Numbered from the stretch's first letter, positions 13,473 to 29,820 are shown. The stretch is DNA of 58,201 nt from an uncultured Ruminococcus sp. (GCA_902791425.1 CADAVS010000001.1:1-58201); one strand, 5' to 3'. Made by a program: numbers and translations. Notes: generated by a model not told the origin, from the sequence alone.

Positions 13473-14168
13473 ATGATTAGAAAAATAATTAAAATAGACG
13501 AAGAAAAATGCAATGGCTGCGGTGCTTGTGCGGCTGCCTGTCACGAGGGTGCGATTGATATGATAGACGGAAAGGCGAAACTGACACGAGAGAATTATTG
13601 TGATGGTCTTGGAGATTGCTTGCCTGCCTGTCCCGTAGATGCTATCAGCTTTGAGGAACGTGAGGCACCTGCATATGACGAGGAAGCCGTAAAACAAGCA
13701 CAACTTAAGAAGAGTGCTGACACACTTCCTTGCGGATGCCCGGGTACACAGTCAAAAGCATTGAAAAGAGAAATGATTTCGGCGGTATCCACACAAAGCA
13801 TACAAAGTCAGCTTATGCAGTGGCCTTGCCAGATAAAGCTTGTTCCCGTAAACGCACCGTATTTTGAGGATGCAAATCTTTTGATTGCGGCAGATTGTAC
13901 GGCTTATGCCTACGGAAATTTCCATAATGAATTTATGAGGGGTCATATTACGATTGTCGGATGTCCTAAGCTGGACGAGGGTGACTATGCAGATAAACTG
14001 ACGCAGATTATTGCAAGCAACAATATCAAAAGCGTGAAAATAGTGCGTATGGAGGTTCCCTGTTGCGGTGGCATAGAAAATGCGGCAAAAAGGGCCATTC
14101 AAAATAGCGGAAAATTCATTCCGTGGCAGGTTGTTACAATATCAACCGATGGCAAAATAATTGAATAA
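13473..14168 (+). CDS. 2x[4Fe-4S] ferredoxin-domain protein with a Cys-containing C-terminal domain
   Basis: 231 aa. Motifs are CNGCGACAAAC and CDGLGDCLPACP, with a later CGCPG and a VPCCGG. RBS AAGGAGG is present. Confidence 0.8.
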   Translation: MIRKIIKIDEEKCNGCGACAAACHEGAIDMIDGKAKLTRENYCDGLGDCLPACPVDAISFEEREAPAYDEEAVKQAQLKKSADTLPCGCPGTQSKALKREMISAVSTQSIQSQLMQWPCQIKLVPVNAPYFEDANLLIAADCTAYAYGNFHNEFMRGHITIVGCPKLDEGDYADKLTQIIASNNIKSVKIVRMEVPCCGGIENAAKRAIQNSGKFIPWQVVTISTDGKIIE

Positions 14169-14177
14169 GTTGTATCG

Positions 14178-14215
14178 AAAATGCAGGAGCCGAGTATGGT
14201 TCCTGCATTTTAATA
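14178..14215 (+). terminator. intrinsic terminator
   Basis: AAAATGCAGGA / TCCTGCATTTT stem followed by Ts. Confidence 0.75.
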
Positions 14216-14287
14216 TTTATAGTATAATTAACTTATGTTTAACCTATATAATTTATAATAATAAAAACAGTAGAAAGGGTGATAGTA

Positions 14288-15133
14288 ATGAAACGCCTGA
14301 TATGTTCATTAACGGCAATGAGCTTAACAATAATCTTTTTGTTTTGTTCCTGCGTAAGCAGTAAAAAAGAAGGTGTGGCTCCCCCTGAGGTTACAGGGGA
14401 ACTTGAGATTTCGGGTTTAAAGGTCGGTCAAGCTGATGCGATTATTATTAATACAAAAAATCATTGCTTTATTATCGACTGCGGTGAGGCAGATGATGGT
14501 GATGAAGTGGTAAAGTATTTAGCAGAAAAGAATATAAGCTGTGTTGATTGTCTTTTTATTACACATTTTGATAAGGACCACGTGGGCGGTGTTCCGGAGG
14601 TGCTTAGTAATATATCTGTTGAAAAAATTATTACACCTGATTATGTAGGAAACAATGATGAGTATGAAAGCTTTGTTAGGAAAACAGATGAGCTTGGCAT
14701 TGTTCCTGAAAGAATTACAAGTGAACAGTCATTTATTGCAGATGATGTTCTGTTTGAAATTTATCCGCCTTTTAAGTTAAGTTATACAGAAGGAGATAAC
14801 GATTTCTCTCTTGCCATAGGGGTAACTCACGGCGAAAATAAATTCTTGTTTACGGGAGATGCAGAGGCTGAACGGATAAGCGAGATAATTCAAAAGTGCA
14901 ACGGTGAATATGACTTTTTAAAGGTTCCTCACCACGGAAAGTATAATAAGAACACAAAGAAGCTTTTTGAAAAAGTAAAACCCAAATACGCAGTTGTAAC
15001 GGACAGCGAAAAAAATCCTGCTGAGGATAAGGTTGTATCTGCACTTAAAGCGGTGGGATGCGATGCTTACTTCACAAGGTACGGAGATGTTTATGTTATA
15101 AGTGACGGAAAAAATATTGAAATAAAGCAATAA
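14288..15133 (+). CDS. MBL-fold metallo-hydrolase lipoprotein (similar to the ComEC C-terminal domain)
   Basis: A signal peptide and lipobox (LFCSC) are present, with the THFDKDHVGG metal motif and a downstream HHG. Confidence 0.75.
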   Translation: MKRLICSLTAMSLTIIFLFCSCVSSKKEGVAPPEVTGELEISGLKVGQADAIIINTKNHCFIIDCGEADDGDEVVKYLAEKNISCVDCLFITHFDKDHVGGVPEVLSNISVEKIITPDYVGNNDEYESFVRKTDELGIVPERITSEQSFIADDVLFEIYPPFKLSYTEGDNDFSLAIGVTHGENKFLFTGDAEAERISEIIQKCNGEYDFLKVPHHGKYNKNTKKLFEKVKPKYAVVTDSEKNPAEDKVVSALKAVGCDAYFTRYGDVYVISDGKNIEIKQ

Positions 15134-15204
15134 ATTTTTGAATATTAACTTAGACTTAACATTGGGGTGTTATAATGCAAGCATAAGATACGAGGTGATA
15201 CGAG

Positions 15205-15927
15205 ATGGCAATCGAAGTTTTTAACAGATATGAGCATAAGTATATGTTGGACAAGGAAACATATGAAGCCGTAATTGACATAGTAGAAAAGCATATGGAG
15301 ATAGACGCACATAACGAAAATCGCAAACCATACACAATTGCAAATATCTACTACGATACACAGGACGACCTTTTGATAAGAACATCCCTTTCAAAGCCTG
15401 AATATAAAGAAAAGCTGAGGCTCAGGGCATACGGAGTTCCGCAAAAAGACAGTAAGGTTTTTCTTGAAATTAAGAAGAAGTACAAAGGCTTGGTTAATAA
15501 AAGACGAACAAAAATATCATTGTCAGAGGCGTATGACTTTGTGGAAACGGGGAATATGCCCGAGAGCAAAGGATATATGAACGAACAGGTAGTAAAAGAA
15601 ATTGATTACTTTATTCACCTATACGATTTAAGACCAAAGCTATATCTTGCCTATGACAGAATTGCATATTTTGAAAGAGAAAATGCGGACCTTCGGATAT
15701 CTTTTGATACAAATATTCGTTCCAGAAGGTATGATGTCAGACTTGAGAACGGCGATTTTGGTGAAGAGCTGTTGTGCGGAGAATACTACTTGATGGAGAT
15801 AAAAACATCATATGCAAAGCCGTTGTGGCTTGTTGATATGCTTAGCACATTAAATATAAAAAGACAAAGCTTTTCCAAATACGGAACAGAATTTAAAAAG
15901 AATATAAATAAAAGTTTAGCTGTATGA
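15205..15927 (+). CDS. VTC-domain (triphosphate-tunnel, polyphosphate-polymerase-like) protein
   Basis: 240 aa. It has the N-terminal NRYEHKY (ExK) motif and alternating basic strands KLRLR, LEIKKK and MEIKT, typical of the TTM/VTC fold. Confidence 0.75.
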   Translation: MAIEVFNRYEHKYMLDKETYEAVIDIVEKHMEIDAHNENRKPYTIANIYYDTQDDLLIRTSLSKPEYKEKLRLRAYGVPQKDSKVFLEIKKKYKGLVNKRRTKISLSEAYDFVETGNMPESKGYMNEQVVKEIDYFIHLYDLRPKLYLAYDRIAYFERENADLRISFDTNIRSRRYDVRLENGDFGEELLCGEYYLMEIKTSYAKPLWLVDMLSTLNIKRQSFSKYGTEFKKNINKSLAV

Positions 15928-15946
15928 AAGAGAGGTCAGACAGAAT

Positions 15947-16630
15947 ATGAATGAATTATTTAACAATATTTTGACAAGCACATCTTCTGAGATGAGCGTG
16001 GCGGGAGCGGTAGTTACAATGCTTATTGCGGTCAGTTTTGGAATAGTAATAGGTTTTACATATTATATGACGCAGAAGGAGAATTATCAAAGAAGTATGG
16101 CAGTTACCCTTGTGATGTTACCGATAATCCTATCGGTAATCATACTATTTGTGGGCAGTAATATAGCACGTGCTTTCAGCCTGGCAGGAACTCTTTCGAT
16201 TATCAGGTTCAGAAGTGCACCCGGCGACCCTAAGGATATAGGCTTTATCTTCTTTGACATAGCCGCAGGACTTGCCTGCGGAGTAGGACTTTACGGATAT
16301 GGGGCTTTGTTTGTGCTGATTTTGTGTGTTTTGATTATTGCTTTGGAAAAGGGAAACATATTTGACAAAAAAGAAGTACATAAGACTTTGAAAATAACCA
16401 TACCCGAAAATTTGAATTATGAGAGTGCATTTGATGATGTGCTTTCAAGGTATACACAAGCATATACACTTAATAAAATTAAAACAACGGACTTAGGTTC
16501 TCTGTTTGAGGTTGTGTATGATGTAGTAATGCTGCGTGAGCATAATGAACAAGAATTTTTGAATGAACTTAGATGCAGAAACGGAAATTTGACGATTATT
16601 CTGGCTGTTTCGCCATCAAAAATCAAATAG
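15947..16630 (+). CDS. DUF4956-like integral membrane protein
   Basis: 227 aa with 4 predicted TM helices followed by a soluble C-terminal domain. It lies immediately downstream of the VTC gene. Confidence 0.7.
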   Translation: MNELFNNILTSTSSEMSVAGAVVTMLIAVSFGIVIGFTYYMTQKENYQRSMAVTLVMLPIILSVIILFVGSNIARAFSLAGTLSIIRFRSAPGDPKDIGFIFFDIAAGLACGVGLYGYGALFVLILCVLIIALEKGNIFDKKEVHKTLKITIPENLNYESAFDDVLSRYTQAYTLNKIKTTDLGSLFEVVYDVVMLREHNEQEFLNELRCRNGNLTIILAVSPSKIK

Positions 16631-16647
16631 CAATGGAGGAGATAAAA

Positions 16648-18891
16648 ATGAAAATTACAAGAATTTTATTATCGGCAGTATTGACTGCGGCGGTTGGATT
16701 GTCGACGCTTTCATTTGCGGCAGACGACAAGTCAAAGGAAAAAGTAAAAGTAAAAATCGACGGAACGGAAATTTCCTTCGATGTTGAGCCTGAAATAATT
16801 GACGGACGTACAATGGTGCCTATCAGAAAAATATTTGAGGAGCTTGGTGCTCTTGTTAAATGGGATGATGAAACACAAACTGTTTCGGCAAGGAAAAGCT
16901 CTAAAACAGTGACGTTGACAATTGATTCCGAAGATATGCAGATTGATAAAGGGGATACCGACAGTGAGGGCAATGCCATTGTAGAAACCGTTACATTGGA
17001 TGTGCCTGCACAGTTGGTGTCGGACAGGACATTGGTGCCTGCAAGGGCGATTTCGGAGGCATTCGGGTTAGATGTTGATTGGGACGAAGCGACTAATACG
17101 GTGTCCATCACATCTGAAGAGGAAGACGAGAGCTGGAAGGACAATGAAAGCGAGATAAACTTATCGGATATGTCATTTGTAGGTGACGGAGTTGAAATCG
17201 CCAACAATCAGATTTTAATTACAAAAGGCGGTATTTATACTCTGTCTGGAACTTTGACAGACGGCAATATTACTGTCGGAACAGAAGAAAAAGTCAGACT
17301 TTGTTTGAATAATGCAACTGTTGCTTCAACAGATAATCCCTGTATATATGTAGAGAAAGCAGATAAGGCATATTTGATGCTTGTTGACGGAACGGAAAAT
17401 CATTTGACTTCTGAAAATGCAAAAGGAGTTATATATTCAAAAGAGAATTTGGAAATCAACGGCGACGGCACGCTATATGTAACAGCGAAAACAGAACACG
17501 GCATAAAGGCATCGGATAATATTACGATAAAAGGCGGTAATATTAATATAGAAGCAGCAGGTGACGGCATACATATCAATGACACCTTTAAAATGACAGA
17601 CGGTGAGCTCAATATTGTATCTGTCGGCGACGGCATAGATTCTGAGTCAATCGTTATTGTGGAAGATGGTAAAATTAATATAGTAACCGAAGGACAGCCT
17701 ATTGAAACAACAACTCTTGATACAACCCAGACAACCGATAAAAATACTGCGACGCAAGGCAATAGAAAAGGAATGATGCAGGAAACGCCGAGCGTAGAGT
17801 TTGAGTCCTCTACAAAGGGTATAAATGCGGAATGGATGATGTGCATTAACGGCGGTGAAATAACTGTTAATTCCTCTGACCACGCAATACATTGTGCTGA
17901 TGAAATTGAGATTAACGGTGGGTTGTTCGATTTAACTTCGGAATATGCAAAAGGGATATCCGGACACGGCAATGTGACGATTAACGGAAACGAAACCGTA
18001 ATAGATATAAAGAAATCGACCGAGGGCATTGAAAGTAAGAATGTACTTACCATCAATGATGGTAAAATAGGTGTTGTGTCCACAGATGACGGACTTAATG
18101 CAACAGGCGGTACAAGCGGTGAAATGATGATGCCCGGCGGTAAGCAAAAGCCAATGCCTCAGGATATGCAGAGTATGACGCCTCCTGATATGCCTGAAGG
18201 CAATGCGGACACACAGCCTAATTCGCAAATGCAGAGGGGAGAGCGACAGAATAATGTGCCTTCGGACAGAAATATGCAGGGCGAGGAAATGAGAAATACC
18301 GAGGGCGATGCAAACCAAATTGTACCTACTTCGGATAACAATGGCGAAAGACGAGGCGGTATGGGTGGCTTCGGCGGAGTTATGAATAAAAAGGAATGTC
18401 TGATAATAAACGGCGGTGAGCTTGAGGTTTATGCAGGTGATGATTGCTTAGATGCAAACGGTAATATGGTCTTAAACGGCGGTGTTATAAAGGCTGTTAA
18501 AACAAACGGTACATTCTCGGGTAATAACGGCGTGCTTGATGCAGACGGACAGATTGTTGTAAACGAGGGTGTGACTATCATAGCCGCAAGCGGGGGCTCG
18601 CAAGGCAATATGAATATCCCTCAAAATACTATAACCATATACAGCGAGGCATCACATAACGATGGTGAGAATATAGTGCTTTATAACAATAACGGAAATG
18701 TAATGACTGAGTATTCACCTAAAGGCAATTATAGTGTTGTTTTGATAACATCACCTTCTCTTACAATTGGTGAAAGTTACAAAGTTTCTCTCGGAGATAC
18801 GACATATAATGTTACATTGTCAGAGCAAAATACAATCATTGGAACTCCAAACAACACGATGGGTGGCAGAAATAATGGGTTTATGCGATAA
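16648..18891 (+). CDS. secreted protein with copper-amine-oxidase-N-like repeats plus a Cthe_2159-type (DUF4353) beta-helix carbohydrate-binding region
   Basis: The start is set at ATG 16648, after GGAGGAG. A signal peptide ends at SFAADD. The DGRTMVPIRKIFEELGA and DRTLVPARAISEAFG motifs are present, with repeated GDGI, DDGLNA and DCLDANG turns. An M/Q/P-rich linker lies at about 18124-18385. Confidence 0.7.
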   Translation: MKITRILLSAVLTAAVGLSTLSFAADDKSKEKVKVKIDGTEISFDVEPEIIDGRTMVPIRKIFEELGALVKWDDETQTVSARKSSKTVTLTIDSEDMQIDKGDTDSEGNAIVETVTLDVPAQLVSDRTLVPARAISEAFGLDVDWDEATNTVSITSEEEDESWKDNESEINLSDMSFVGDGVEIANNQILITKGGIYTLSGTLTDGNITVGTEEKVRLCLNNATVASTDNPCIYVEKADKAYLMLVDGTENHLTSENAKGVIYSKENLEINGDGTLYVTAKTEHGIKASDNITIKGGNINIEAAGDGIHINDTFKMTDGELNIVSVGDGIDSESIVIVEDGKINIVTEGQPIETTTLDTTQTTDKNTATQGNRKGMMQETPSVEFESSTKGINAEWMMCINGGEITVNSSDHAIHCADEIEINGGLFDLTSEYAKGISGHGNVTINGNETVIDIKKSTEGIESKNVLTINDGKIGVVSTDDGLNATGGTSGEMMMPGGKQKPMPQDMQSMTPPDMPEGNADTQPNSQMQRGERQNNVPSDRNMQGEEMRNTEGDANQIVPTSDNNGERRGGMGGFGGVMNKKECLIINGGELEVYAGDDCLDANGNMVLNGGVIKAVKTNGTFSGNNGVLDADGQIVVNEGVTIIAASGGSQGNMNIPQNTITIYSEASHNDGENIVLYNNNGNVMTEYSPKGNYSVVLITSPSLTIGESYKVSLGDTTYNVTLSEQNTIIGTPNNTMGGRNNGFMR

Positions 18892-18901
18892 TTAAAGTAG
18901 T

Positions 18902-18940
18902 GACGGCTTTGAAATTTTTTAAAGCCGTCAATTTACTTTA
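18902..18940 (+). terminator. intrinsic terminator
   Basis: GACGGCTTT / AAAGCCGTC stem with a T-rich loop and tail. Confidence 0.7.
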
Positions 18941-18981
18941 ATAAAATTTTGTGGTAAAATAGAAATATCGGAGGTGGAGTT

Positions 18982-19653
18982 ATGAAACTTCTTATAGCAG
19001 AAGACGAAAAAAGTCTGAACAAAACTATTGCAGAACGTTTGACACGGAGCGGTTATACTGTGGATAGCTGTTTTGATGGCGAGGACGCATTATACTATAT
19101 AGAAAGCACGCAGTATGACGGAATAATTCTTGATGTTATGATGCCTAAAATAAACGGCTTTGAGGTTTTGCGTATTATCCGTGAAAAGAAAATACTCACT
19201 CCTGTCCTTATGCTAACCGCTAAAGATGCCGACGAGGATATTATAACAGGACTTGATACGGGGGCTAATGATTATCTTACAAAGCCGTTTTCTTTCGGGG
19301 TGCTGAGTGCCAGAATTCGTGCAATGCTGAGAGTAAAGGAAAATGTTACAAGCACTGTGCTTGAGATTGCTGACTTGAGCTTAGATACCACAAAAAGAAT
19401 TGTAAAACGCGGAGGAAAAGATATCGAGTTATCGTCTAAGGAATATTCTATTTTAGAGTATATGATGCGTAATAAAGGAATTGTCCTTTCAAAAGATAAA
19501 ATTGAGGATAATATTCGGAATTATGAATATGAGGGGACAAGCGACATTATAAAAGTGTATATCCATCATCTTAGGAAAAAAATTGATGATAATTTTGATA
19601 AAAAGCTGTTGCATACCGTAAAAAATGCAGGCTATGTACTTAAGGAAGATTGA
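18982..19653 (+). CDS. OmpR-family response regulator
   Basis: 223 aa. The receiver domain has DVMMP and LTAKD, followed by a winged-helix C-terminus. Confidence 0.9.
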   Translation: MKLLIAEDEKSLNKTIAERLTRSGYTVDSCFDGEDALYYIESTQYDGIILDVMMPKINGFEVLRIIREKKILTPVLMLTAKDADEDIITGLDTGANDYLTKPFSFGVLSARIRAMLRVKENVTSTVLEIADLSLDTTKRIVKRGGKDIELSSKEYSILEYMMRNKGIVLSKDKIEDNIRNYEYEGTSDIIKVYIHHLRKKIDDNFDKKLLHTVKNAGYVLKED

Positions 19654-19654
19654 A

Positions 19655-21004
19655 ATGAAAAAGCTTACTTCTATAAAAACAAGAATAACAATTTGGTATA
19701 CCACATTAATGTTTATTTTGGTTTCGGTGGTGTTGGCGATAGTTGGCTCTCTGTCCTATCAGCTTTCAATAGACGGTATAGAAAATGACATTAAGGCTCA
19801 GGTTTCACAGGTGTCCGAAAGGGTAAGGAACAGAGCGTCAAAAAATATATTTTATAGTGTTGAGAGCAGTAAAGAGTTTAAAAATGTTTCAGTATATTTA
19901 GAGGACGGCTCCTATGTGGTGGGACAGTATCTTTATGACTTATCATCAATTCCGTTTAAAGAAAAACTGCGCAGAGAGACTGTTGACGGTGAAACATATA
20001 TAGTATATGACGAGTTTAAGCCATCAAAGCCGGGCGACAACAGAGGGTATTGGATAAGAGGTGCAGAGTCGGTAAATTATACTAAGGTTTTGGGACGTTC
20101 TATGTTTATGATTATACTTATTATTATACCGATTATACTGCTTATCACAGCGTTTGGCGGATATTATATCACAAGAAAAGCCTTTTTGCCTGTTAATGAT
20201 ATTACGCATACCGCAAACGAGATATGCACTCAAAATGATATTAAAAAGAGAATACCAATTAATCCCTACGGCAGAGAGGATGAGCTGTATAAATTATCCT
20301 TAACCCTAAATAAAATGCTTGATAAAATAGAGGACTTAATTGTAAAAGAAAAGCAATTTACTTCGGATGCCTCTCACGAACTGAGAACACCTATCAGCGT
20401 AATTTTAGCACAGGGTGAATATCTTTTGGATATTGCCGACAATGAAAAGGAAAAGGAGCTGGCTAAAAGTATTGTTGATAAATCAAATCAGGTATCAAAG
20501 CTTGTTTCAAGGCTTCTGCTCCTTGCACGCATAGACAGCAACAGACAAAAAATTAATAAGGAAAAGGTTGACCTCAGCGTTCTTGTGGATATTGCCGCAG
20601 ACGGAATGAGAGAATTGGCAAAGAGTAAGAATATAGTTATCCTCACAGATGTCAGTGAAAACACAATTGTAAATGCAGACGAGGCGTTGCTTTTAAGTGC
20701 GATTTCCAACCTTATCAGCAATGCAATAAAATACGGCAGAGAGTCAGGTCACGTTATAATCAAGGCATCAAAATATGCGGATAGTACGGAGATTGTCGTT
20801 TCAGATAACGGCATAGGTATTTCAAGCGAGAATTTGGAAAAGATATGGGGACGTTTTTACCGCGTGGATGACGTCAGAAATGACGAATACGGCAGCAGTG
20901 GTTTAGGTTTGTCTATGGTAAAGAGTATAGTGGAGCTTCATAACGGCAAAATTTTTGTTAAGAGTCAGCCCGGAAAAGGAACGGAATTCAGAATAGTATT
21001 GTAA
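19655..21004 (+). CDS. sensor histidine kinase (2 TM, HAMP, HisKA, HATPase)
   Basis: The start is set at ATG 19655, directly after the response-regulator stop. The H-box is SDASHELRTP. The N and G boxes are NAIKYG and GLGLSMVK. Confidence 0.9.
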   Translation: MKKLTSIKTRITIWYTTLMFILVSVVLAIVGSLSYQLSIDGIENDIKAQVSQVSERVRNRASKNIFYSVESSKEFKNVSVYLEDGSYVVGQYLYDLSSIPFKEKLRRETVDGETYIVYDEFKPSKPGDNRGYWIRGAESVNYTKVLGRSMFMIILIIIPIILLITAFGGYYITRKAFLPVNDITHTANEICTQNDIKKRIPINPYGREDELYKLSLTLNKMLDKIEDLIVKEKQFTSDASHELRTPISVILAQGEYLLDIADNEKEKELAKSIVDKSNQVSKLVSRLLLLARIDSNRQKINKEKVDLSVLVDIAADGMRELAKSKNIVILTDVSENTIVNADEALLLSAISNLISNAIKYGRESGHVIIKASKYADSTEIVVSDNGIGISSENLEKIWGRFYRVDDVRNDEYGSSGLGLSMVKSIVELHNGKIFVKSQPGKGTEFRIVL

Positions 21005-21074
21005 ATTAACTGTTGCAGAATTATGCACGGGTGCCTAAATATCATATAAATTATGTTAATTTTTTGCAAAAGTA

Positions 21075-21103
21075 TTGACAAGCAGTATAGAAAACAGTAA
21101 AAT
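21075..21103 (+). promoter_or_regulatory. sigmaA-type promoter for rubredoxin-thioredoxin
   Basis: TTGACA, 17 nt, TAAAAT, about 38 nt upstream of the rubredoxin ATG. Confidence 0.65.
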
Positions 21104-21141
21104 TAAGATAATAAATTATATATTTTAAGGAGGAATTTTTT

Positions 21142-21297
21142 ATGAAATATGTATGTGATGTATGCGGATGGGAATATGACGAGGAAGTCGGATGCCCTGA
21201 TTGTGGCATAGAACCCGGCACAAAGTTTGAGGATTTGCCTGAAGATTTTGTTTGCCCTCTTTGCGGAGTAGGCAAAGACCAATTTTCTGAGGCATAA
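21142..21297 (+). CDS. rubredoxin (51 aa, below the length cut-off of the supplied ORF track)
   Basis: The translation is [51 protein letters not shown]. It has two CxxCG knuckles and an AAGGAGG RBS. Confidence 0.9.
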
Positions 21298-21323
21298 AGC
21301 ATAACAACATAAGGGAGATTAAT

Positions 21324-21635
21324 ATGGCAGAGGTTGTTGTTACAAAGAGTAATTTTGAAACAGAGGTAGTAAAATCGGACATTCCCGTAGTTGTTGACTT
21401 TTGGGCAACCTGGTGCGGTCCTTGCAGAATGTTGGGGCCTGTTCTTGCTGATATTGCGGAGCAGTACGAAGGCAAGGTTAAGGTTGCTAAAGTAAACGTA
21501 GACGAGGAACCTGAGCTTGCTATGAGGTTTAATGTTTCAAGTATTCCTATGCTCCTGTATTTCAAAAATGGTGAAATATTAAACAAATCAATAGGATATG
21601 CACCAAAGGAAGAAATAGAGGCTATGTTTGTTTAG
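21324..21635 (+). CDS. trxA: thioredoxin
   Basis: 103 aa with the WCGPC active site. Confidence 0.93.
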   Translation: MAEVVVTKSNFETEVVKSDIPVVVDFWATWCGPCRMLGPVLADIAEQYEGKVKVAKVNVDEEPELAMRFNVSSIPMLLYFKNGEILNKSIGYAPKEEIEAMFV

Positions 21636-21642
21636 AAAGAGT

Positions 21643-21676
21643 CACACCGCATAATAAATTGCGGTGTGCTTTTATA
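21643..21676 (+). terminator. intrinsic terminator after trxA
   Basis: CACACCGC / GCGGTGTG stem followed by CTTTTAT. Confidence 0.8.
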
Positions 21677-21757
21677 TTGTATATTATAGTTGCCGATTTT
21701 TCTCAAACGGGACGATGTGGGCATCGTCCCCTACAATATGCAAGGCAGCCAATTATA

Positions 21758-21846
21758 AATTTAAAATAATTTTTTCCTTGCAGTTGGGCTTGGCAACTGT
21801 ATGGGCGAAGGGCAATAATTCAATAAAATTATTTTGGATTTATAAT
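21758..21846 (+). repeat. copy A of the roughly 85-nt hairpin element
   Basis: The arms are 21760-21773 and 21825-21838, forming 14 bp including 2 U-G pairs. The core at 21779-21806 is identical to copies B and C. The 3' end forms TTCAAT-16-TATAAT. Confidence 0.85.
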
Positions 21847-21897
21847 TGACACCACACACAAGGAGCTGAAACATTCTTACAAAGGAGAAGATGAAAG

Positions 21898-22884
21898 ATG
21901 TATGTTGCAAATTCAGACAGATACGATAAAATGAAGTTTGCGTTTAGCGGTAAAAGCGGTTTGCAGATACCGAGAGTTAGCTTAGGTCTATGGCATAACT
22001 TTGGTTCTGTTGATGTTTATGACAATATGCGTGATATGTGTTTTACGGCATTTGATAATGGCATTACGCACTTTGATATTGCCAACAACTATGGTCCCAT
22101 ACCGGGAAGTGCGGAAACAAATTTTGGTCAAATAATAAAAAATGACCTGTCTGCATATCGTGACCAACTGATTATCAGTACAAAGGCGGGTTATGATATG
22201 TGGGAAGGTCCTTACGGCAACGGCGGCAGCAGAAAATATCTTATTTCGAGTCTTGATGCCAGCCTTAAGAGATTGGGACTTGACTATGTTGATATATTCT
22301 ATCACCACAGAATGACACCCGAAACACCCCTTGAAGAATCAATGCTTGCCCTTTCTCAAATTGTGAAAAGCGGAAAGGCTTTATACATTGGAATATCAAA
22401 TTATGATGGTGAGAATATGAAAAAGGCATCGGATATCCTCAAGGAGCTGAAAGTGCCGTTTATTATTAATCAAAACAGATATAATATTTTTGACAGGCAG
22501 ATAGAGAGCAATGGACTATTAAAGGCTGCCGAGAGCGAGGGCAAGGGCGTAATATGTTTCAGCCCTCTTGACCAAGGCAAGTTGACGGACAGATATTTAG
22601 ACGGAATTCCGGCAGGCAGCAGAGCCTCTAAAAATCATTTTTTAAAGGAAAGTCAAATCACTCCTGAACTGATAGCGAAAATAAAGGGTTTAAATGATAT
22701 TGCCGCAAACAGAGGACAAAGCCTTGCACAAATGGCTCTGTCGTGGGTGCTAAAGGATAAGACTGTGACAAGTATATTAATTGGCGCATCTTCGTCAGAG
22801 CAAATTCTTGATGACTTAAAGTGTATAGACAACACCGAGTTTTCGGCTGAAGAATTAAAAATGATTGACGATATTGTTTTATAG
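21898..22884 (+). CDS. aldo/keto reductase (YghZ/Gpr-like)
   Basis: 328 aa with AKR motifs (THFDIANNYG, LYIGISNY). RBS AAGGAGAAG is present. Confidence 0.88.
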   Translation: MYVANSDRYDKMKFAFSGKSGLQIPRVSLGLWHNFGSVDVYDNMRDMCFTAFDNGITHFDIANNYGPIPGSAETNFGQIIKNDLSAYRDQLIISTKAGYDMWEGPYGNGGSRKYLISSLDASLKRLGLDYVDIFYHHRMTPETPLEESMLALSQIVKSGKALYIGISNYDGENMKKASDILKELKVPFIINQNRYNIFDRQIESNGLLKAAESEGKGVICFSPLDQGKLTDRYLDGIPAGSRASKNHFLKESQITPELIAKIKGLNDIAANRGQSLAQMALSWVLKDKTVTSILIGASSSEQILDDLKCIDNTEFSAEELKMIDDIVL

Positions 22885-22900
22885 TATTTGATATGCTTAA

Positions 22901-22945
22901 AAAGGCTGTGACATTAAGGATATTATCTTTAATGTCACAGCCTTT
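22901..22945. terminator. bidirectional terminator
   Basis: 17-bp stem AAAGGCTGTGACATTAA / TTAATGTCACAGCCTTT between convergent genes. Confidence 0.85.
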
Positions 22946-24627
22946 TATTGTTCAACTATTTCAAAATGTCCGTCGTCCATATGAAGATGCGTGTCGCATA
23001 TTGAAAGAGCGGCGTTTTTGTGTGATATAAAAAATATTGTCTTTGTGTTAAGCTTTTTGATGTTCGCAAGCAAATCCTCTTCGGTCTGGGCGTCAAGTGC
23101 GGAGGTACATTCATCAAGCATAAGAATAGGTGCGTTACAGCATAAGGCTCTTGCAATTGCAATTCTCTGTATCTGACCCTCCGACAAACCCAAGCCGTGT
23201 TCGCCGATTTTTGTGTCAAAGCCGTTTGGCAGAGAAGAGATAAAATCGTATATACAAGCCGTTTTTGCGGCAGAAATCATTGCTTCTTCTGATAAATTTT
23301 CGTTGCCAAAGGTTATGTTTTCCCTCAGACTTCCCGATATTAGCAGGTTGCCCTGTGGAACATATGCAAACATAGAACGCGTTGCGGCGGTTAAATCAAT
23401 TGGTGATGTATTTGTTTTTACAAAAAGTTTTCCCGATGTGGGAGAGTACAGACCAAGCATCAGCTTAAATAATGTTGATTTTCCTGTTCCCGAAAGTCCT
23501 GTTATTGCAACGCAATCTCCTTTTTTAATAGAAAATGTTGTGTTGGATATAATTGACTTTTTGTTGTATCCGAAGTTCAAGCCTTCCGCACATATATGTG
23601 TCATATTTTCATAGGCTGAATTTGGGTCAAAGTCGAAAGCGGATATTTCATCAGGAATATCCTCAAGCTCGGCTAAACGCTCAGCCGATGCCATAGCACC
23701 GTATAATTGTGTTATCAGAGATGACGCATTAAAGAATGGTGATGATATCTGAGATACTATCTGCATAAACGCCATCAATGTACCATAATCCATTGCTTTG
23801 TTTGCAATCATAAAGGCTCCCCAACAGAGTGTTGCATAATATACAAATCTGTATATAAGGGTTGCACCTCCGCCTGCAATATTGCCGATGTGGTTACGCA
23901 GAATTTGCAGGTCGTATATTTTTTGAAGATAGCTGTCAAGCTTTTTAAGGAGCGGTCCGCTGTTTGAAAACGTTTTTACAACCACCATATTCTCAGTACA
24001 TTCCTGAGTAAAGCCTCGCATTACTCCCGTTGCCTCTCGTGTTTTTCTGTGAATTTTTTTGTAAAAAGGTTTAAGGCAAAATGCACATAAAACTATAAAC
24101 AATCCCACAAACAGAATAAAAACGGCATAGCTTTTACTGAAAGATAAGATTAGTATAAACCCTGCAACAGCTTTTGCCACAATAGAAATTGCCTCGGGTA
24201 CAAATGAGGTTATGCCTGATATTACTATATCAATATCACTTGTAAATCTGTTTAAAATTTCACCCGAATGCATATCGGAAAGCTTTGGATATTCTTTTTT
24301 TGTTATTGTTTCAAAAAAGCTGTGGCGCATATCCTTTTCCAATCTGCCCTCTATTACCACACGCAGGTGGGAGTTCAAAATCATAACACCAACTGTTACA
24401 ACAACAAAGGCGAGCAAGGCAAGAGCGTACTTTATTATATCGCCCTTTGCATCGGCTAACGAGGCGGAATTTACTGCCGAATTTATTATCGACTTGGAAA
24501 GAAGTGCGGGCACAACATAGCTTACAGATACCAGCATACTTAAAAACGTCAATAATAATATAAGCCCCATTTGTTTTTTCGATTTATTCAAAAGCCACAT
24601 AACAGAATTTTTTTGTTTTTTCTTCAT
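22945..24627 (-). CDS. ABC exporter, fused permease and ATPase (half transporter)
   Basis: 560 aa. An N-terminal 6-TM domain is followed by Walker A GLSGTGKST, the signature LSEGQ and Walker B ILMLDE. Confidence 0.88.
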   Translation of the reverse strand: MKKKQKNSVMWLLNKSKKQMGLILLLTFLSMLVSVSYVVPALLSKSIINSAVNSASLADAKGDIIKYALALLAFVVVTVGVMILNSHLRVVIEGRLEKDMRHSFFETITKKEYPKLSDMHSGEILNRFTSDIDIVISGITSFVPEAISIVAKAVAGFILILSFSKSYAVFILFVGLFIVLCAFCLKPFYKKIHRKTREATGVMRGFTQECTENMVVVKTFSNSGPLLKKLDSYLQKIYDLQILRNHIGNIAGGGATLIYRFVYYATLCWGAFMIANKAMDYGTLMAFMQIVSQISSPFFNASSLITQLYGAMASAERLAELEDIPDEISAFDFDPNSAYENMTHICAEGLNFGYNKKSIISNTTFSIKKGDCVAITGLSGTGKSTLFKLMLGLYSPTSGKLFVKTNTSPIDLTAATRSMFAYVPQGNLLISGSLRENITFGNENLSEEAMISAAKTACIYDFISSLPNGFDTKIGEHGLGLSEGQIQRIAIARALCCNAPILMLDECTSALDAQTEEDLLANIKKLNTKTIFFISHKNAALSICDTHLHMDDGHFEIVEQ

Positions 24628-24768
24628 CAGCCCGCCTCCTTATTTGGCATTATACCATTTTGCATACACACCGTCAAGCAGTGTGAGAAAAAATGATATA
24701 AAAGTGGTTCTAATTCGGGACAAAGTGTCATAACAATATTCTATAAGAAAGCGAAAGGAAGATTAATT

Positions 24769-25698
24769 ATGAATAAACAAAGGATATCAGAGGTTTTGCA
24801 CTATCTTCCCCAGAGCATAGGCGACTTGCTGAATAGGCTTATGTCTGATGAATGGATAGAAATTGAAGAAATACGATTGAGATGTAATGCACCGCTGACG
24901 GTAGGGGTGTGGGGAGAGAGCTGTTTTATAACTAACACAGGAGGAATAACAAATTATGAGAGTGATGCTTATAAGGTTACGTCGGAGGAAGTCGGTACGG
25001 CATTCCGAAAAATCTGTGAAAACTCAGTTTACGCACATATGGAAGAAATTAGAAGAGGTTATATTACGATTAAGGGAGGCCACAGAGTCGGTATTTGCGG
25101 AAAAGCCGTCTGCGAGGAAGGAAGAATAAAAATGTTTAAAGAGGTAAGCTCTTTAAATTTCAGGATTGCACATCAAATTATCGGACTTGCTGACGGAATA
25201 ATCGACACAATAATAAATGGAAATGAGGTAAACAGTACATTGATTATCTCCCCTCCGCAGATGGGCAAAACAACTCTTTTGAGAGATATTCTCCGTCAGG
25301 TTTCCGATAAGGGATTTAAGTGCGGAGCGGCAGACGACAGAGGTGAGCTTGCGGCTATGTATCAGGGAATGCCCACAAATATGGTAGGTGCCCAAACTGA
25401 TGTAATTGACGGAGCGCCAAAGTCTGAGGCAGTAGAAATGTTGCTGAGAACAATGTCGCCAAAGGTGATTTTCAGCGACGAGATAGCCTCTGATGCTGAT
25501 GTTGCCGCTCTCAGAGTGGCGGCAGGAACAGGGGTTAAAATTATTGCAACGACTCACGGTGATTGTGTGGAGGAAGTTATGTCAAGAAAGTTTTTAAAGC
25601 CCGTCTTTGAAGATAAAATATTTTCTCAGGCGATTTTGCTCCGCAGAGATTTTTCCACCCCCGAGTCGGTTACATACACAAAGGCGGTTAAGCTGTGA
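24769..25698 (+). CDS. spoIIIAA: stage III sporulation protein AA (ATPase)
   Basis: 309 aa. Walker A is PPQMGKTT. It is the first gene of the eight-gene spoIIIA cluster. Confidence 0.9.
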   Translation: MNKQRISEVLHYLPQSIGDLLNRLMSDEWIEIEEIRLRCNAPLTVGVWGESCFITNTGGITNYESDAYKVTSEEVGTAFRKICENSVYAHMEEIRRGYITIKGGHRVGICGKAVCEEGRIKMFKEVSSLNFRIAHQIIGLADGIIDTIINGNEVNSTLIISPPQMGKTTLLRDILRQVSDKGFKCGAADDRGELAAMYQGMPTNMVGAQTDVIDGAPKSEAVEMLLRTMSPKVIFSDEIASDADVAALRVAAGTGVKIIATTHGDCVEEVMSRKFLKPVFEDKIFSQAILLRRDFSTPESVTYTKAVKL

Positions 25699-26219
25699 GC
25701 TATTCTGTAAAGCTCCTTGCCGCCGTAATGGTCATATTCGGCGGCGGATATGCAGGCGTTCTATTGTCCTCTGCCTTTTCAACACGGGTCAGACAGCTTA
25801 AGCAGTTGAGCAACGGAATTTCCCAAATCGGGTTTAACATTAGTTTTTTGCATATGAATGTTGCGGACTCTATGAGATGTGCATCAGGACTTGTCAAGGG
25901 AACAGTAAATAAAATTTTTTTGTGTGTGGCAGAGGACATATCTTCAAATGGAATGAAACCATCTGTCGCCTTTGACAGAGCAATGCGTAGATACAGCGGC
26001 GACTTATGCCTGACCTCTGCTGACAGAGAGATTATCAAGGAGTTTGCCGACAACCTCGGTATAGGTGATGCTGAAAGCGAAATGAACAACATCAAGGCGG
26101 CGGCAGCAAAGCTGCACCTTGCCGAAACAGAGGCAGAGTCCGAGTGCGACCAAAAGGGCAGGCTGTGGAGGGGCATTGGAATATTGGGCGGAGTGTTTGC
26201 GGTCATACTTTTGTTTTAG
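25695..26219 (+). CDS. spoIIIAB: stage III sporulation protein AB
   Basis: 174 aa with N- and C-terminal TM segments. Its position and size match spoIIIAB. Confidence 0.85.
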   Translation: MSYSVKLLAAVMVIFGGGYAGVLLSSAFSTRVRQLKQLSNGISQIGFNISFLHMNVADSMRCASGLVKGTVNKIFLCVAEDISSNGMKPSVAFDRAMRRYSGDLCLTSADREIIKEFADNLGIGDAESEMNNIKAAAAKLHLAETEAESECDQKGRLWRGIGILGGVFAVILLF

Positions 26220-26236
26220 GCGGAATGGGGATTAAT

Positions 26237-26434
26237 ATGGATGGAGTAGATTTGATTTTTAAGGTTGCCGCTATCGGCATTTTGGTTGCTGTTCTGAATG
26301 TTTTGCTGATACGTGCGGGACGTGAGGAACAGGCGTTGATGACAACCATTGCGGGTCTGGTTACGGTTTTGCTTGTAATCGTCAAGGAGATAAGCGGTTT
26401 GTTTGATACCATAAAATCGTTATTTGGACTTTAA
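26237..26434 (+). CDS. spoIIIAC: stage III sporulation protein AC
   Basis: 65 aa with 2 TM segments (MDGVDLIFKVAAIGILVAVL...). ATG 26225 is an alternative start. Confidence 0.85.
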   Translation: MDGVDLIFKVAAIGILVAVLNVLLIRAGREEQALMTTIAGLVTVLLVIVKEISGLFDTIKSLFGL

Positions 26435-26436
26435 AT

Positions 26437-26826
26437 ATGTTGATATTTAAAATAATCGGAATAGGACTGACGGGAGCAATACTTTCATTGGTTGTAAGGC
26501 AATACAAGCCTGAGCTTGCTGTTGCAATACCTATTCTTGTGGCTGTAAGCATCATAGGTATTTGTGCTCCGTATATAGAAACAGTTGTGGCTATGATTGA
26601 AAATATGGCTGACAGTACAGGCATAGAGATGAGCCAGGTGAGAATAGTGATAAAAATTATCGGTGTGGCTTATATATGTCAATTTGCGTCAGATATATGC
26701 AAGGATATAGGCGAAAGCTCTGTTTCAAGCAAAATCGAGCTTGGGGGTAAGGTGGTTATCATTACTCTTTCTATGCCGATAATATATAATCTTTTAGAGC
26801 TTGTAAACAGAATAGTAAACATTTAG
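26437..26826 (+). CDS. spoIIIAD: stage III sporulation protein AD
   Basis: 129 aa multi-TM protein in the conserved position. Confidence 0.85.
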   Translation: MLIFKIIGIGLTGAILSLVVRQYKPELAVAIPILVAVSIIGICAPYIETVVAMIENMADSTGIEMSQVRIVIKIIGVAYICQFASDICKDIGESSVSSKIELGGKVVIITLSMPIIYNLLELVNRIVNI

Positions 26827-26846
26827 AAAAATACGGAGTTATACAT

Positions 26847-28043
26847 ATGAAACAAAAGCTGATTGTGCATATCATAATATTGCTTTTTACCCTGATGTAC
26901 AGTGCGGAAGTTGCGGCAGAGAAAACCTCGTTGGATAGAGATGATTTTTACTCGGTTCTTGATGACTACGCCGCATTTTACGGAGAGATTTTTGAAGACG
27001 GAATTGATGAAATAGAGGGAGGCAATTCCTTTTTGAATATGCTGCCTGAGTTCAAGGCTTCTGATATATTAAAGAGCTTTAATAATGGTGAAGTAGCGTT
27101 TACGCCAAAACAATTGTTAGACTACTTTTTAAGGCTTTTGCTCGGCGAGGTATACTCGGCGGCAAAGCTGATGGCATTAATACTTGCAATGGCGGTGCTG
27201 AGTTCATATTTAAGCGGTTTGAAATCGGGCTTTGGTGAAAATTCTGTATCTATCGCAGCCTTTTATGTCTGTTATATAGTAACCGCAGGAATAGCGGCAA
27301 CTGTGTTTTATGATACGTCAAGCTGTGCTGCAGACGCCGTAGAGAATGTGGCACTGTTTATGAAGATAATTGTGCCCTCGGTAATGGTACTGTTGATGAC
27401 AAGCGGAGCTACCATATCGGCAACTGTTTTAGAGCCGACAATGCTTGCAATAGTAGAAATTGTTGTGCCTGTTGTGCAATATATTTTTATTCCCGCGGTT
27501 ATGATTTCTACCGCATTAAATATAGTAAACGGTATGTCGGATAAGTTCAAAACAGACAGAATGGTTAAGCTGTTGAACAGCGTTGTCAAATGGGGATTGT
27601 CTGTTATGCTGACAATTTTTGTGAGCCTTGCAGGGCTTAAAAGCATAGCCTCGGCAGGTGCTGACGGACTTACCATCAAGCTGAGCAAGTTTGCAACCTC
27701 TAATCTTGTGCCTATGATAGGCGGTATTTTAGCGGAGTCGGTTGAAACAGTAATGAATTGCAGTGTTGTAATCAAAAATTCCGTAGGAATATTGGGTATA
27801 ATATGCTTGGTGTTGATTGCCCTAAGACCTGTTTTAAAGCTCGGTGCAATATTAATCTTGTTCCGCTTGACTGCCGCCGTTGCAGAGCCTGTGTCAGAGC
27901 CCAAGCTGATAAATTGTATATCAAGACTTGCGGACTCCGTTGCGGTGCTGTTTTCTATAGTGGTGGCTGTCACGGTAATGTTTATAATCGTTATAACAAT
28001 ACTTATAAATGCGGGAAACAGTGCCGTTATGTTCGGCGGATAG
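26847..28043 (+). CDS. spoIIIAE: stage III sporulation protein AE
   Basis: 398 aa with a signal peptide and a polytopic membrane domain. Confidence 0.88.
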   Translation: MKQKLIVHIIILLFTLMYSAEVAAEKTSLDRDDFYSVLDDYAAFYGEIFEDGIDEIEGGNSFLNMLPEFKASDILKSFNNGEVAFTPKQLLDYFLRLLLGEVYSAAKLMALILAMAVLSSYLSGLKSGFGENSVSIAAFYVCYIVTAGIAATVFYDTSSCAADAVENVALFMKIIVPSVMVLLMTSGATISATVLEPTMLAIVEIVVPVVQYIFIPAVMISTALNIVNGMSDKFKTDRMVKLLNSVVKWGLSVMLTIFVSLAGLKSIASAGADGLTIKLSKFATSNLVPMIGGILAESVETVMNCSVVIKNSVGILGIICLVLIALRPVLKLGAILILFRLTAAVAEPVSEPKLINCISRLADSVAVLFSIVVAVTVMFIIVITILINAGNSAVMFGG

Positions 28044-28075
28044 GTGGATTGGCATATGACGAAATGGAGATTAAT

Positions 28076-28564
28076 ATGGCGGAATTTTTAAGAGAATGGA
28101 CAATGACGCTTGCCGGCATTATTGTGTTTGGCTCTCTGTGTGAGATGATTTTGCCCGGCGGCGTATACAAAAAATATATACATTTGGCAATCGGTCTTAT
28201 GCTGTGCCTGGCTGTTCTGTCACCGCTTGCGAGCAAAAAGACAGAGGTTGATATAAGCTTTATGGAGCCTGAAACATATGCAATGATTGAAGTACCTGAG
28301 GAGGCACAAAGAAACGAAGTTTTAAGGATATACAAGGATAATCTTTGTAAGAATATGACAGAAGAAGTAAAGAAATATTCTGATTTGGAATTTGACATCA
28401 AGTGTGATGTCAGCGAAGACGAGGACAGCTTTGGGGTAATAAAAAATGTATGGATAACAGTTGATGCAGACAGAGGTGAGAGACTTGATAACAGGTGTGT
28501 GGATGCCTTGAAAAATATATATGGAATAGATGATGGGTGCATAAGCATAAAGTATTTAGGGTGA
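28076..28564 (+). CDS. spoIIIAF: stage III sporulation protein AF
   Basis: The start is set at ATG 28076, 5 nt after GGAGA. It has 2 N-terminal TM segments and a soluble domain. Confidence 0.8.
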   Translation: MAEFLREWTMTLAGIIVFGSLCEMILPGGVYKKYIHLAIGLMLCLAVLSPLASKKTEVDISFMEPETYAMIEVPEEAQRNEVLRIYKDNLCKNMTEEVKKYSDLEFDIKCDVSEDEDSFGVIKNVWITVDADRGERLDNRCVDALKNIYGIDDGCISIKYLG

Positions 28565-28670
28565 AAGTATAAAACCGAACCGTGATTTTGAAAGGTAAAT
28601 TTACGTTTTATCTGCGTTAAAATACTCGGTAATCTTTAGGGTAACAACGATAAGTGGGGCGATTTCCGTA

Positions 28671-29225
28671 ATGAGTTTTAGGGATATGCTTAGTAAAAGA
28701 GAAATTTCTGAAGATGGCTATGAGAAGAAAAAGCCAAATAAAGTTTTAATCATAATAATAATTCTGGCAGTAGTTATTCTGGCTTTCAGCAGTTTTTTTG
28801 AAGGGAATGACACGCCATCAAAAGAGAATACCAATGATGCCGATACTGTCGAAAGGTTTGCAAGAGAGCAGGAACGCAGACTTGAAATGATTTTGAAAAA
28901 GATTAACGGAGCAGGAGATGTTTCGGTGTTTATAAGCGTTGACAACGGAGGTGAAAAGGTTTTAGCACGTGACAACAAAAACAAAGCTTCAGAGGAGACA
29001 AACGGCTCTGAATTATCAAAAAACGAGGAGTACGAAAGCCAAATTGTAAAAGGCGGAAAAGTTTCCGGTGAGGAACCTTATGTAGTCGAAGAAAGAACGC
29101 CTGAGGTATCGGGAGTTTTAGTCGTGGCAGAGGGTGCCTCCAGCGAGAAGGTCAGGCTTGAAATCTATGATGCGGTCAAGGCTGTATTCGGAATTGCACC
29201 GCACAGAATTAAAATTACATATTAA
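28671..29225 (+). CDS. spoIIIAG: stage III sporulation protein AG
   Basis: 184 aa. An N-terminal TM segment is followed by a C-terminal ring-building-motif-like domain (VSGVLVVAEGA). Confidence 0.85.
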   Translation: MSFRDMLSKREISEDGYEKKKPNKVLIIIIILAVVILAFSSFFEGNDTPSKENTNDADTVERFAREQERRLEMILKKINGAGDVSVFISVDNGGEKVLARDNKNKASEETNGSELSKNEEYESQIVKGGKVSGEEPYVVEERTPEVSGVLVVAEGASSEKVRLEIYDAVKAVFGIAPHRIKITY

Positions 29226-29246
29226 TTTTGAAGGGGTATGTGAATT

Positions 29247-29813
29247 ATGAGCAAACAGAATAAAAATTTTCAGTTTAAGGGAAAGCAGATTTTGTTGTTA
29301 GGGCTTGTTGCTCTTGTCATTACTGCAGGTTATTATAGATGGAATATAGAAAAGGAACAGCTGTCGTTAGCGGTTCCTGCCGCCAATGAAATGTCTGACG
29401 GGGCAGTAAGCGACGGCGAAAATCAAGAACAGAACGAAAACAATGAACAGAAGAATGAAAGTTCTTCCACAGACGAAATAACAAAGCTTAAACAGACGCG
29501 TGATACTTCAAGAAGTCAATCCACAGAGGAGTGGACAAAAATAACAAAGAGCAATGATGCATCGACTGAGAATAAAAAGGATGCCGAAAAAAAGATTGCC
29601 GCAGAGGCAGACCACGCAGACAAGGAGAGAAAAATAGAAACACAGGTCAAAGCAAAGGGATATGCGGATTGCATTGCCTATGTTGACGAAAACGGCGTGT
29701 CGGTAACGGTTCAAGGTGGCGAGGTAAACGGCGAGAAGGTCGCTCAAATTAAAGATATCATTGTTTCGGTAACAAATGTTCCCGTTAAAAATATAAAGAT
29801 AAATGCTCTGTAA
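29247..29813 (+). CDS. spoIIIAH: stage III sporulation protein AH
   Basis: 188 aa. An N-terminal TM segment and a charged linker are followed by a C-terminal domain. It is the last gene of the operon. Confidence 0.85.
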   Translation: MSKQNKNFQFKGKQILLLGLVALVITAGYYRWNIEKEQLSLAVPAANEMSDGAVSDGENQEQNENNEQKNESSSTDEITKLKQTRDTSRSQSTEEWTKITKSNDASTENKKDAEKKIAAEADHADKERKIETQVKAKGYADCIAYVDENGVSVTVQGGEVNGEKVAQIKDIIVSVTNVPVKNIKINAL

Positions 29814-29820
29814 AAAGGAT

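Follow-up and report, generated by a model that had tools for sequence, protein, structure and literature searches.

The window analysed here, the whole of a 58,201-nt stretch of DNA from an uncultured Ruminococcus sp. (GCA_902791425.1, CADAVS010000001.1:1-58201), carries three copies of a nested palindrome, each oriented towards the next gene: copy A ahead of an aldo/keto reductase, copy B ahead of the EPSP synthase gene aroA, and copy C ahead of a weak-PAS/rhodanese/ArsC trio. All three share the exact 28-mer TGCAGTTGGGCTTGGCAACTGTATGGGC (21779-21806, + strand; 41626-41653, + strand; 11263-11290, - strand), for which shuffled sequences give a chance expectation of 0 even with three mismatches permitted. 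The hairpin CAGTTG-N7-CAACTG is found at these copies and nowhere else in the window (0.05 occurrences expected). The 28-mer is nested in a palindrome of ~85-95 nt, whose AU-rich arms pair perfectly over 17 bp in copy B (41604-41620 with 41672-41688), have TT opposite GG in copy A, and contain two mismatches in copy C. An earlier note on this DNA had described the identical 28-mers, the core hairpin and the pairing arms (perfect in copy B, with CC changed to TT in copy A) in the same terms, and these observations are confirmed. Searches of the window by nhmmer and short BLAST found no further copies or terminal-repeat shells beyond these three. Their parts, named for the mobile-element reading argued below, are as follows.

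~21687..21868, + strand: composite element A, decayed, boundaries approximate
from ~21687, + strand: left end of element A, terminal-repeat-like, TAGTTGCCGATT...
21709-21730: REP-like GC hairpin of element A, followed by CTACAA (GTAG on the other strand)
21750..21848, + strand: central palindromic module of copy A, comprising outer arms, P2 hairpin and the invariant 28-mer
21750-21773 / 21825-21848, + strand: outer arms of copy A, a 24-bp palindrome with two G·T pairs
21781-21799, + strand: P2 hairpin of copy A
21857-21868, + strand: degenerate right terminal repeat of element A, CACAAGGAGCTG
41560..41573: left target-site duplication of element B, TTTAAAAATATCT(T), 13-14 bp
41573/4..41775, + strand: element B, a MITE of the long form; the aroB stop codon (41562-41564) precedes it and the aroA ribosome-binding site follows
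left end of element B: TAGGACACAAAATTGCGG..., with an internal deletion of ~18 nt
41604-41694, + strand: central module of element B, with the 28-mer at 41626-41653
right end of element B: right sub-terminal module and right terminal repeat, ending ...TTTGACAAACGAA
41776..41789: right target-site duplication of element B, TTTAAAAATATCT(T), 13-14 bp
11196..11208: lower copy of the target-site duplication of element C, AAAATAATATATA on the + strand, exact 13 bp
11209..11323, - strand: element C, a minimal 115-nt MITE (terminal repeat, central module, terminal repeat)
11228-11311, - strand: central module of element C, with the 28-mer at 11263-11290
terminal repeats of element C: (T)AACCGTTTGCAAAAG and CTCTTGCAATTGCCTA
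11324..11336: higher copy of the target-site duplication of element C, exact 13 bp

The sense strand of each copy folds into an outer helix, P1, enclosing the hairpin P2; the predicted energies are -33.3 kcal/mol for copy A (z = -6.1) and -29.3 kcal/mol for copy B (z = -3.5), the fold of copy C being weak (z = -1.5). Because the element is a palindrome, good folds are likewise obtained for the opposite strand and with DNA parameters. The element is non-coding, as had been proposed. The ORFs over copies A and B (21664-21849 and 41585-41767) read the shared sequence in different frames; copy B additionally carries a 31-aa ORF in the same frame as the ORF of copy A. No ORF is conserved among the units, and the indels that distinguish the 74 aligned copies rule out coding. 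A small peptide encoded by the element was considered and rejected, its frames being unconserved.

The genome-wide search that the earlier note had recommended yielded 79 more copies, together with their insertion contexts and target-site duplications. The pattern GTTGGGCTTGGCAACNNTATGGGC was scanned against one genome per species, 185,579 species genomes in all, and matched 73 stretches beyond the window in seven of them, which brings the total to 82 copies, all intergenic. Most are in four rumen MAGs labelled “uncultured Ruminococcus sp.” by NCBI (RUG11189, 23 copies; RUG10604, 23; RUG12270, 21; RUG14314, 6), with one to three each in three other uncultured Clostridia MAGs; a 99%-identical aldo/keto reductase carries the label Monoglobaceae. 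Many of the matches lie less than 100 nt from a contig end, as expected of a repeat that breaks assemblies. The family consensus is ATTATAAATCCGAAATAATTTTTTCATTGCAGTTGGGCTTGGCAACTGTATGGGC-NNN-GGGCAATTATTCAATAAAATTATTTCGGATTTATAAT. Rfam 15 yielded nothing at its gathering threshold, either for the window or for ten related loci, and only noise for copy B in E-value mode (E up to 10), in agreement with the earlier note, which had recognised no known Rfam family. BLAST against plasmid and phage collections found no match, and a metagenome scan with the right-end 18-mer ACGTTTTACAAACGGCTA returned eight matches, all attributable to chance. The single IMG/VR match (L074) is the same as a MAG locus (L036) over 500 nt on each side, and this identity beyond the element means that it is not evidence for phage carriage. 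These hosts make up a narrow clade of uncultured rumen and gut Clostridia, to which the family is restricted.

Terminal inverted repeats of ~16 nt (TAGSCGWTTGTAAAA ... TTTTACAAWCGSCTA) delimit the full unit, whose length ranges from 115 to ~330 nt; roughly half of the loci have TAGSCGWTTGTAAAA and its reverse complement on either side of the core, 80-150 nt away. In RUG11189 the unit around the core measures ~240 nt and runs between TAGGCGATTGTAAAATG and CGTTTTACAAACGGCTA; such units are flanked in turn by direct repeats of the target: GATGAGCTTTAAA at L010, 11-13 bp around AGATCAATTTG at L019, and ATCTGCATAAACA at L048. A systematic search identified 12 terminal-repeat-bounded units with exact direct repeats of 9-13 bp at their flanks, 13 bp in six of them; among 300 random positions, repeats of at least 9 bp were seen at 2. 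The exact 13-bp duplications include those at L010, L019, L028, L048 and window copy C; at seven further units the duplication is 9-12 bp. The orthologue of element C in RUG10604 (L028) has the identical structure and target-site duplication. The terminal repeats of copies A and B are partly degenerate, and no target-site duplication is recognisable at copy A; at the position homologous to copy A, L081 and L083 have an intact right terminal repeat, TTTTACGTTTTACAAACGGCTA, and the RUG10604 version of element A (L005) is ~230 nt longer.

The state of a target before insertion can be read at the junction of aroB and aroA. In relatives whose AroA is 89%, 79% and 70% identical, the aroB-aroA spacer lacks an insertion and measures 24, 22 and 41 nt, respectively; the junction is uninterrupted in L075-L078, with the target sequence present once, and in the nearest relative (L077) the empty site reads TATTTAAAATGATTTGCACAGGAGG. 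Relative to these, the window has ~203 nt inserted and the target duplicated. The single uninterrupted target in the relatives implies that copy B split an operon junction, and the insertion is common to the window genome, RUG10604 and RUG12270. Insertion duplicates ~13 bp of target DNA. No empty site occurs among the fetched loci, because every one of these was chosen for carrying a copy. An empty site for copy A was also sought through a relative with an 87%-identical aldo/keto reductase, which was uninformative, its gene order being different; copy B is thus the one window copy whose empty site was recovered, copies A and C having yielded none. Just downstream of this 87%-identical reductase is a DUF772 transposase-domain (PF05598) fragment of 93 aa (L079:4064-4345), whose flanks have no similarity to the MITE terminal repeats. 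No parent transposase or multi-copy ORF was found in 0.57 Mb of flanking loci.

Two of the window sites look different in relatives. At the copy A site, exactly the 22-nt P2 hairpin has been lost in L081, L083 and L084, which have 92% nucleotide identity to the window and the same gene order. The region L081:9700-10008 (and its counterparts in L083 and L084) is orthologous to window 21610-21905 and retains the arms and right terminal repeat; the hairpin GCAGTTGGGCTTGGCAACTGTA is absent and TGGGT replaces TGGGC, a clean palindrome excision. Such a clean loss in one close lineage indicates that individual copies are dispensable. Beside copy C, the FAD-dependent oxidoreductase/Rieske gene (11351-12649) is almost wholly absent from the RUG10604 orthologue, through a deletion of 1.08 kb (window 11339-12422 versus L028:3831-3833). 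The deletion begins 3 nt from the MITE target-site duplication, which suggests that it was element-associated.

We consider it highly probable (roughly 85%) that a new family of non-autonomous MITEs exists in a narrow clade of uncultured Clostridia, and that the three copies are its conserved central body. The units are short, non-coding and dispersed, in tens of copies per genome; they have terminal inverted repeats, a duplication of fixed length, and an insertion polymorphism with an empty site at aroB-aroA. A small mobile MITE/REP-like element had been the first of three explanations offered in the earlier note, and it is the one that these observations bear out. The minimal unit of 115 nt (copy C) is a central nested palindrome between two terminal repeats; the elements would be moved in trans by a DDE-type transposase making a staggered cut of ~13 bp. 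Survival of copies would be limited to intergenic positions, with a preference for the orientation that does no harm on co-transcription with the neighbors. The palindromicity of the arms and of the CAGTTG/CAACTG hairpin would derive partly from a small number of master copies, with hairpin-templated (quasipalindrome) correction contributing and selection on sense-strand structure possibly doing so as well. Effects on neighboring genes, whether by read-through, a weak outward promoter or an RNA hairpin, would be a by-product and not the reason for the element.

Open frames of at least 150 codons were used as gene proxies for the orientation counts; a crude first pass was similar. Between co-directional genes, 27 copies are sense and 10 antisense (p = 0.008); nine more are in divergent regions and five between convergent genes. 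Over all contexts the downstream gene is co-oriented for 45 of 63 copies and opposed for 18. Core orientation with respect to local GC skew is about even (33 versus 28). The earlier description of the element as always lying in sense upstream of a gene thus holds in the window (3/3); across the family the sense-upstream orientation is a real bias (~70%), not a rule. Selection against insertions that interfere with co-transcription would account for this bias no less well than a useful function would. The distance from element to start codon varies from <10 to >400 nt. A Pfam scan of ten downstream genes found a PLP-dependent enzyme, OadB, a MurB-like protein, mannose-6-phosphate isomerase, a nucleoside phosphorylase, a Clp ATPase, PdxS, a class-V aminotransferase, a dockerin protein and Ham1, whose functions are unrelated. 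Unrelated downstream functions, together with varying orientation and distance, make a regulon or riboswitch unlikely.

Might the element instead be a mobile promoter, that is, a co-opted MITE in which the 3′ arm and flank supply an outward sigma-A promoter to the downstream gene? Such a promoter could, for example, have restored aroA expression after the aroB-aroA junction was split, and copy B is indeed intra-operonic and in sense; the preponderance of co-oriented downstream genes also fits. The hexamers in question are present as first written: TTCAAT-16-TATAAT at copy A, TTCAAT-16-TATATT at B and TTCATT-16-TTTACT at C. Of 74 copies, 18 have a perfect TATAAT after the 3′ arm and 42 have TANNNT, but the remaining 32 are without any -10-like box. 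The -35-like hexamer, TTCAAT or TTCATT, agrees with TTGACA at only 3/6 positions, and a sigma-70 consensus scan of the three regions did not flag the hexamer sites. Promoter-like matches in these regions (3 versus 1.6, 3 versus 1.5, and 8 versus 2.7 in shuffles) are not clearly above expectation; 18 copies face away from the downstream gene, and five are between convergent genes. As a general role of the family, outward promoter delivery is not borne out and seems rather unlikely; an outward promoter is possible for some copies, but it is not a property of the family. A terminator scan of the three regions found none within the element. Two other readings of short motifs were tried and set aside: a sigma-54 -24/-12 promoter in TGGCAACTGTATGGGC, where the spacing, judged by eye, is off by one, and an integron attC site (GTTGGGC fits GTTRRRY), which would require a paired R″/L″ architecture and a cassette array, neither of which is present.

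Pairing in P1 and P2 reaches 97% across an alignment of 74 distinct copies, and four positions have changes on both sides of the pair (CG/UA, AU/GC, UA/AU and AU/GC/GU). None of 500 shuffles attained the observed paired cells, doubly-changed cells, pair types or covariation score, and 13 of 500 reached the count of pairs changed on both sides; slid registers score far below the real one, and RNAalifold recovers identical P1/P2 helices. The copies in this alignment are recent, close paralogues, which limits how the covariation can be read. On the sense strand, G·T pairs outnumber A·C pairs by 35 to 16 with one conserved G·T excluded, and by 26 to 3 at the four covarying positions. Mutational skew was considered as the source of this excess and rejected: the ratio (~2:1) is equal in loci of positive and negative GC skew, and skew therefore does not explain it. 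The earlier argument that U-G wobbles in the sense RNA of copy A, as against A-C mismatches in the antisense, favor a strand-specific structure holds only weakly.

Over seven orthologous pairs there are 0.02 differences per site in the 28-nt core (22 of whose 28 positions are fixed by the search pattern), 0.03-0.04 in the arms, 0.11 in the junctions and 0.24 in the NNN spacer. Between orthologues the core has changed only at one compensating pair, A-T to G-C, seen in the copy B orthologues, and in RUG10604 (~91% genome identity) the core is intact at the orthologues of all three window copies. Hairpin-templated (quasipalindrome) repair can make inverted repeats uniform in the absence of selection, and inverted repeats of mobile DNA covary without any RNA function, a caveat that applies to the four covarying pairs. 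Structure and rates point, weakly, to constraint on the sense-strand structure, whether for transposition or for a host process.

One way to accommodate these data within a mobile family is that the invariant 28-nt core and its arms are a strand-specific RNA or single-stranded DNA structure used by the host or by the element; such a structure might be bound by a protein or RNA, or might signal processing or stability. This is kept open because the core is intact across ~9% divergence and has undergone a compensating change in place, and because the NNN between two GGGC boxes varies freely and the G·T excess is independent of skew. The intact core, its slow change, its compensating pair, the orientation bias and the G·T excess fit a host function better than simple junk. 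We regard such use as unlikely overall. If the core were functional, dozens of unrelated Clostridia genes would share one post-transcriptional input, and a host role would provide an example of transposon-spread regulatory wiring.

A stronger version would make the element primarily a cis-acting structured RNA (riboswitch-like, an attenuator, a stability element or a ribozyme) that has merely been spread by the MITE, with P1 and P2 forming the fold and the invariant G-rich single strands (the GGGCUUGG loop, UAUGGGC and GGGCAA) binding a factor or ligand. The degree of pairing, the compensating changes, the agreement on the helices, the slow core, the orientation bias, and a G·U pair conserved at one position within a G·T excess that is indifferent to skew all count in its favor. 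Against this, there is no Rfam match, the downstream genes are unrelated, the distance to the start codon is variable, ~30% of copies are antisense or convergent, and both strands fold, as RNA or as DNA. The stems are almost invariant, unlike those of true RNA families; the covariation of an inverted repeat could also arise by subfamily descent or quasipalindrome correction, and P2 has been lost at the copy A site in one lineage while the locus was retained. The cis-acting RNA among the earlier proposals is not needed, and given the unrelated genes and the varying position and orientation we judge it very unlikely; the covariation, the slow core and the 2:1 G·T excess would still allow the host a secondary use of the core.

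The units differ considerably in build. Longer ones (200-330 nt), copies B and A among them, have sub-terminal modules in addition and, at some sites, GC-rich REP-like hairpins; the core may be in either orientation relative to the sub-terminal modules of its shell. At L070:3760-4085 the terminal-repeat shell holds other cargo, GC-rich hairpins replacing the core. At L012:97-175 and L068:720-810 the shared AT-rich arms enclose a different central hairpin (CCGCTG...CAGCGG, or loop GGCCCCA and TGAGC), and hybrid or partial copies in L047 and L051 have a GTAG-type REP hairpin in place of P2. The family is a mosaic of interchangeable modules.

Copies occur in tandem at three loci, with duplication periods of 92-133 nt (L020:1078-1193, L047:7190-7307 and L067:4715-4871) and some 3′ arms truncated; half-copies lie immediately upstream of full copies in L031, L051, L056 and L073. 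GC-rich hairpins of a second repeat family, GGGACG...CGTCCC with CTACAA after it, are present at many loci, including window 21709-21736, L038, L067 and L071; the other strand reads as GTAG followed by a hairpin, the classical REP signature. The sequence CGTCCCCTACA is present 33 times in the loci, a REP-like hairpin (CCCCTACA/CCCTACAA) lies within 90 nt of 17 core copies, and there is a sister type, GGCAGG-AGCAAGCC-CCTGCC-CTACAA. Long-form units carry, in their left sub-terminal module, TGTGGATAA, which is exactly the DnaA-box consensus TTATCCACA in reverse complement; there are 18 instances in the loci (including L012:4060-4075, L010, L019, L026, L043, L063 and L005:631-640) and none in the window.

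Other repeats were noticed in the window. Two tandem 135-nt units, 96% identical, lie just upstream of an Asp23-family gene (29955-30224); in alignments with L081 and L083 this region aligns in two registers that overlap, and collinearity is interrupted; the array may differ in length there. A stretch of ~80 nt at 28554-28634 is 94-96% identical to sequences in RUG10604 (L005:4028-4104, inverted; L030:144-224; L067:5040-5118); it has no Rfam match at the gathering threshold, and is another dispersed repeat or a small RNA gene. The intergenic or leader region 48632-48845 is ~80% identical to L035:1500-1667 and L054:5196-5395 and contains several GC-rich inverted repeats; Rfam in E-value mode gave noise only.

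The mosaic build raises the question of whether these are REP/BIME-type elements, hairpin modules multiplied by a RAYT of the HUH family acting on one DNA strand. This would explain both the strand asymmetry and the mosaic with GTAG hairpins: REP-like units (GTAG and a GC-rich hairpin, such as GTAGGGGACG...CGTCCC) adjoin 17 of the 82 copies in fixed orientation, one of them beside copy A at 21709-21736, and the hybrids in which a REP hairpin stands in for P2 have a BIME-like modularity. However, HUH enzymes do not make 13-bp target-site duplications or terminal inverted repeats, and the core is AT-rich, measures 85-95 nt, and has its P2 flanked by TTGCA and TATGGGC with no GTAG. No RAYT gene was seen in a look that was less than genome-wide. 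The REP/BIME reading is very unlikely indeed.

That the palindrome is a shared operator, upstream of promoters and defining the regulon of a DNA-binding regulator, as also suggested in the earlier note, is scarcely credible, despite its symmetry, the invariant 28-nt core and the redox genes in two of the three window neighborhoods (thioredoxin and aldo/keto reductase near copy A; rhodanese, ArsC and FAD oxidoreductase near copy C): neighboring genes are unrelated across the 82 copies, position and orientation vary, with 18 of 63 copies facing away from the downstream gene and some convergent, the element is an insertion with target-site duplications, and an invariant core of 28 nt with arms of 17-24 bp is far larger than an operator.

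If the MITE reading is right, the three look-alike hairpins are insertions of one mobile repeat, and there is no regulon or riboswitch to chase. The family would be an undescribed example, in uncultured rumen and gut Clostridia, of an ordinary kind of bacterial repeat, its less common traits being the ~13-bp target duplication, the 115-nt minimal form and the interchangeable hairpin cargo. A further such trait is an insertion that split the aroB-aroA operon junction and persists in three species-level genomes. Repeats of this kind break up MAG assemblies, can be lineage markers, and may alter neighboring expression.

Several known systems offer comparisons. The Correia elements of Neisseria (CREE/NEMIS) are dispersed, non-coding intergenic MITEs of ~100-155 bp, present in tens to hundreds of copies per genome; their long terminal inverted repeats fold into a hairpin on transcription, and the -10-like boxes at their ends have led to the proposal that they deliver promoters. 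They duplicate the dinucleotide TA and have 26-bp terminal repeats and an IHF site. The present family is likewise made up of short non-coding intergenic units with terminal inverted repeats, but it duplicates ~13 bp, has a CAGTTG/CAACTG central hairpin, belongs to Clostridia, and has no sequence similarity to the Correia elements. MIC231 and other MITEs derived from IS4/IS231 in the Bacillus cereus group are also from Firmicutes, and can have variable cargo between their ends; the target-site duplications given by ISfinder are 10-12 bp for IS231 and 11-13 bp for the IS4 subgroup. Terminal inverted repeats and long target-site duplications are shared with the elements described here, whereas the TAGSCGWTTGTAAAA terminal repeats are not known to resemble the IS231 ends, and no parent insertion sequence was found. 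ERIC/IRU, RUP, BOX and EFAR are imperfect palindromes of 100-170 bp that are co-transcribed with their neighbors, with orientation-dependent effects on mRNA reported, and BOX is modular; their sequences and hosts differ from those of the present family, and ERIC and BOX are without clear target-site duplications. With the BIMEs and REPs of enterobacteria and pseudomonads the family has in common an intergenic mosaic of interchangeable hairpin modules, and the same genomes also carry GTAG and GC-rich stem hairpins beside many copies. REPs, however, are GC-rich sequences of 20-40 nt, linked to RAYTs and without terminal inverted repeats or target-site duplications, whereas the present element is AT-rich and has both; it is these two features that place it, despite its BIME-like modularity, as a mobile unit among the MITEs.
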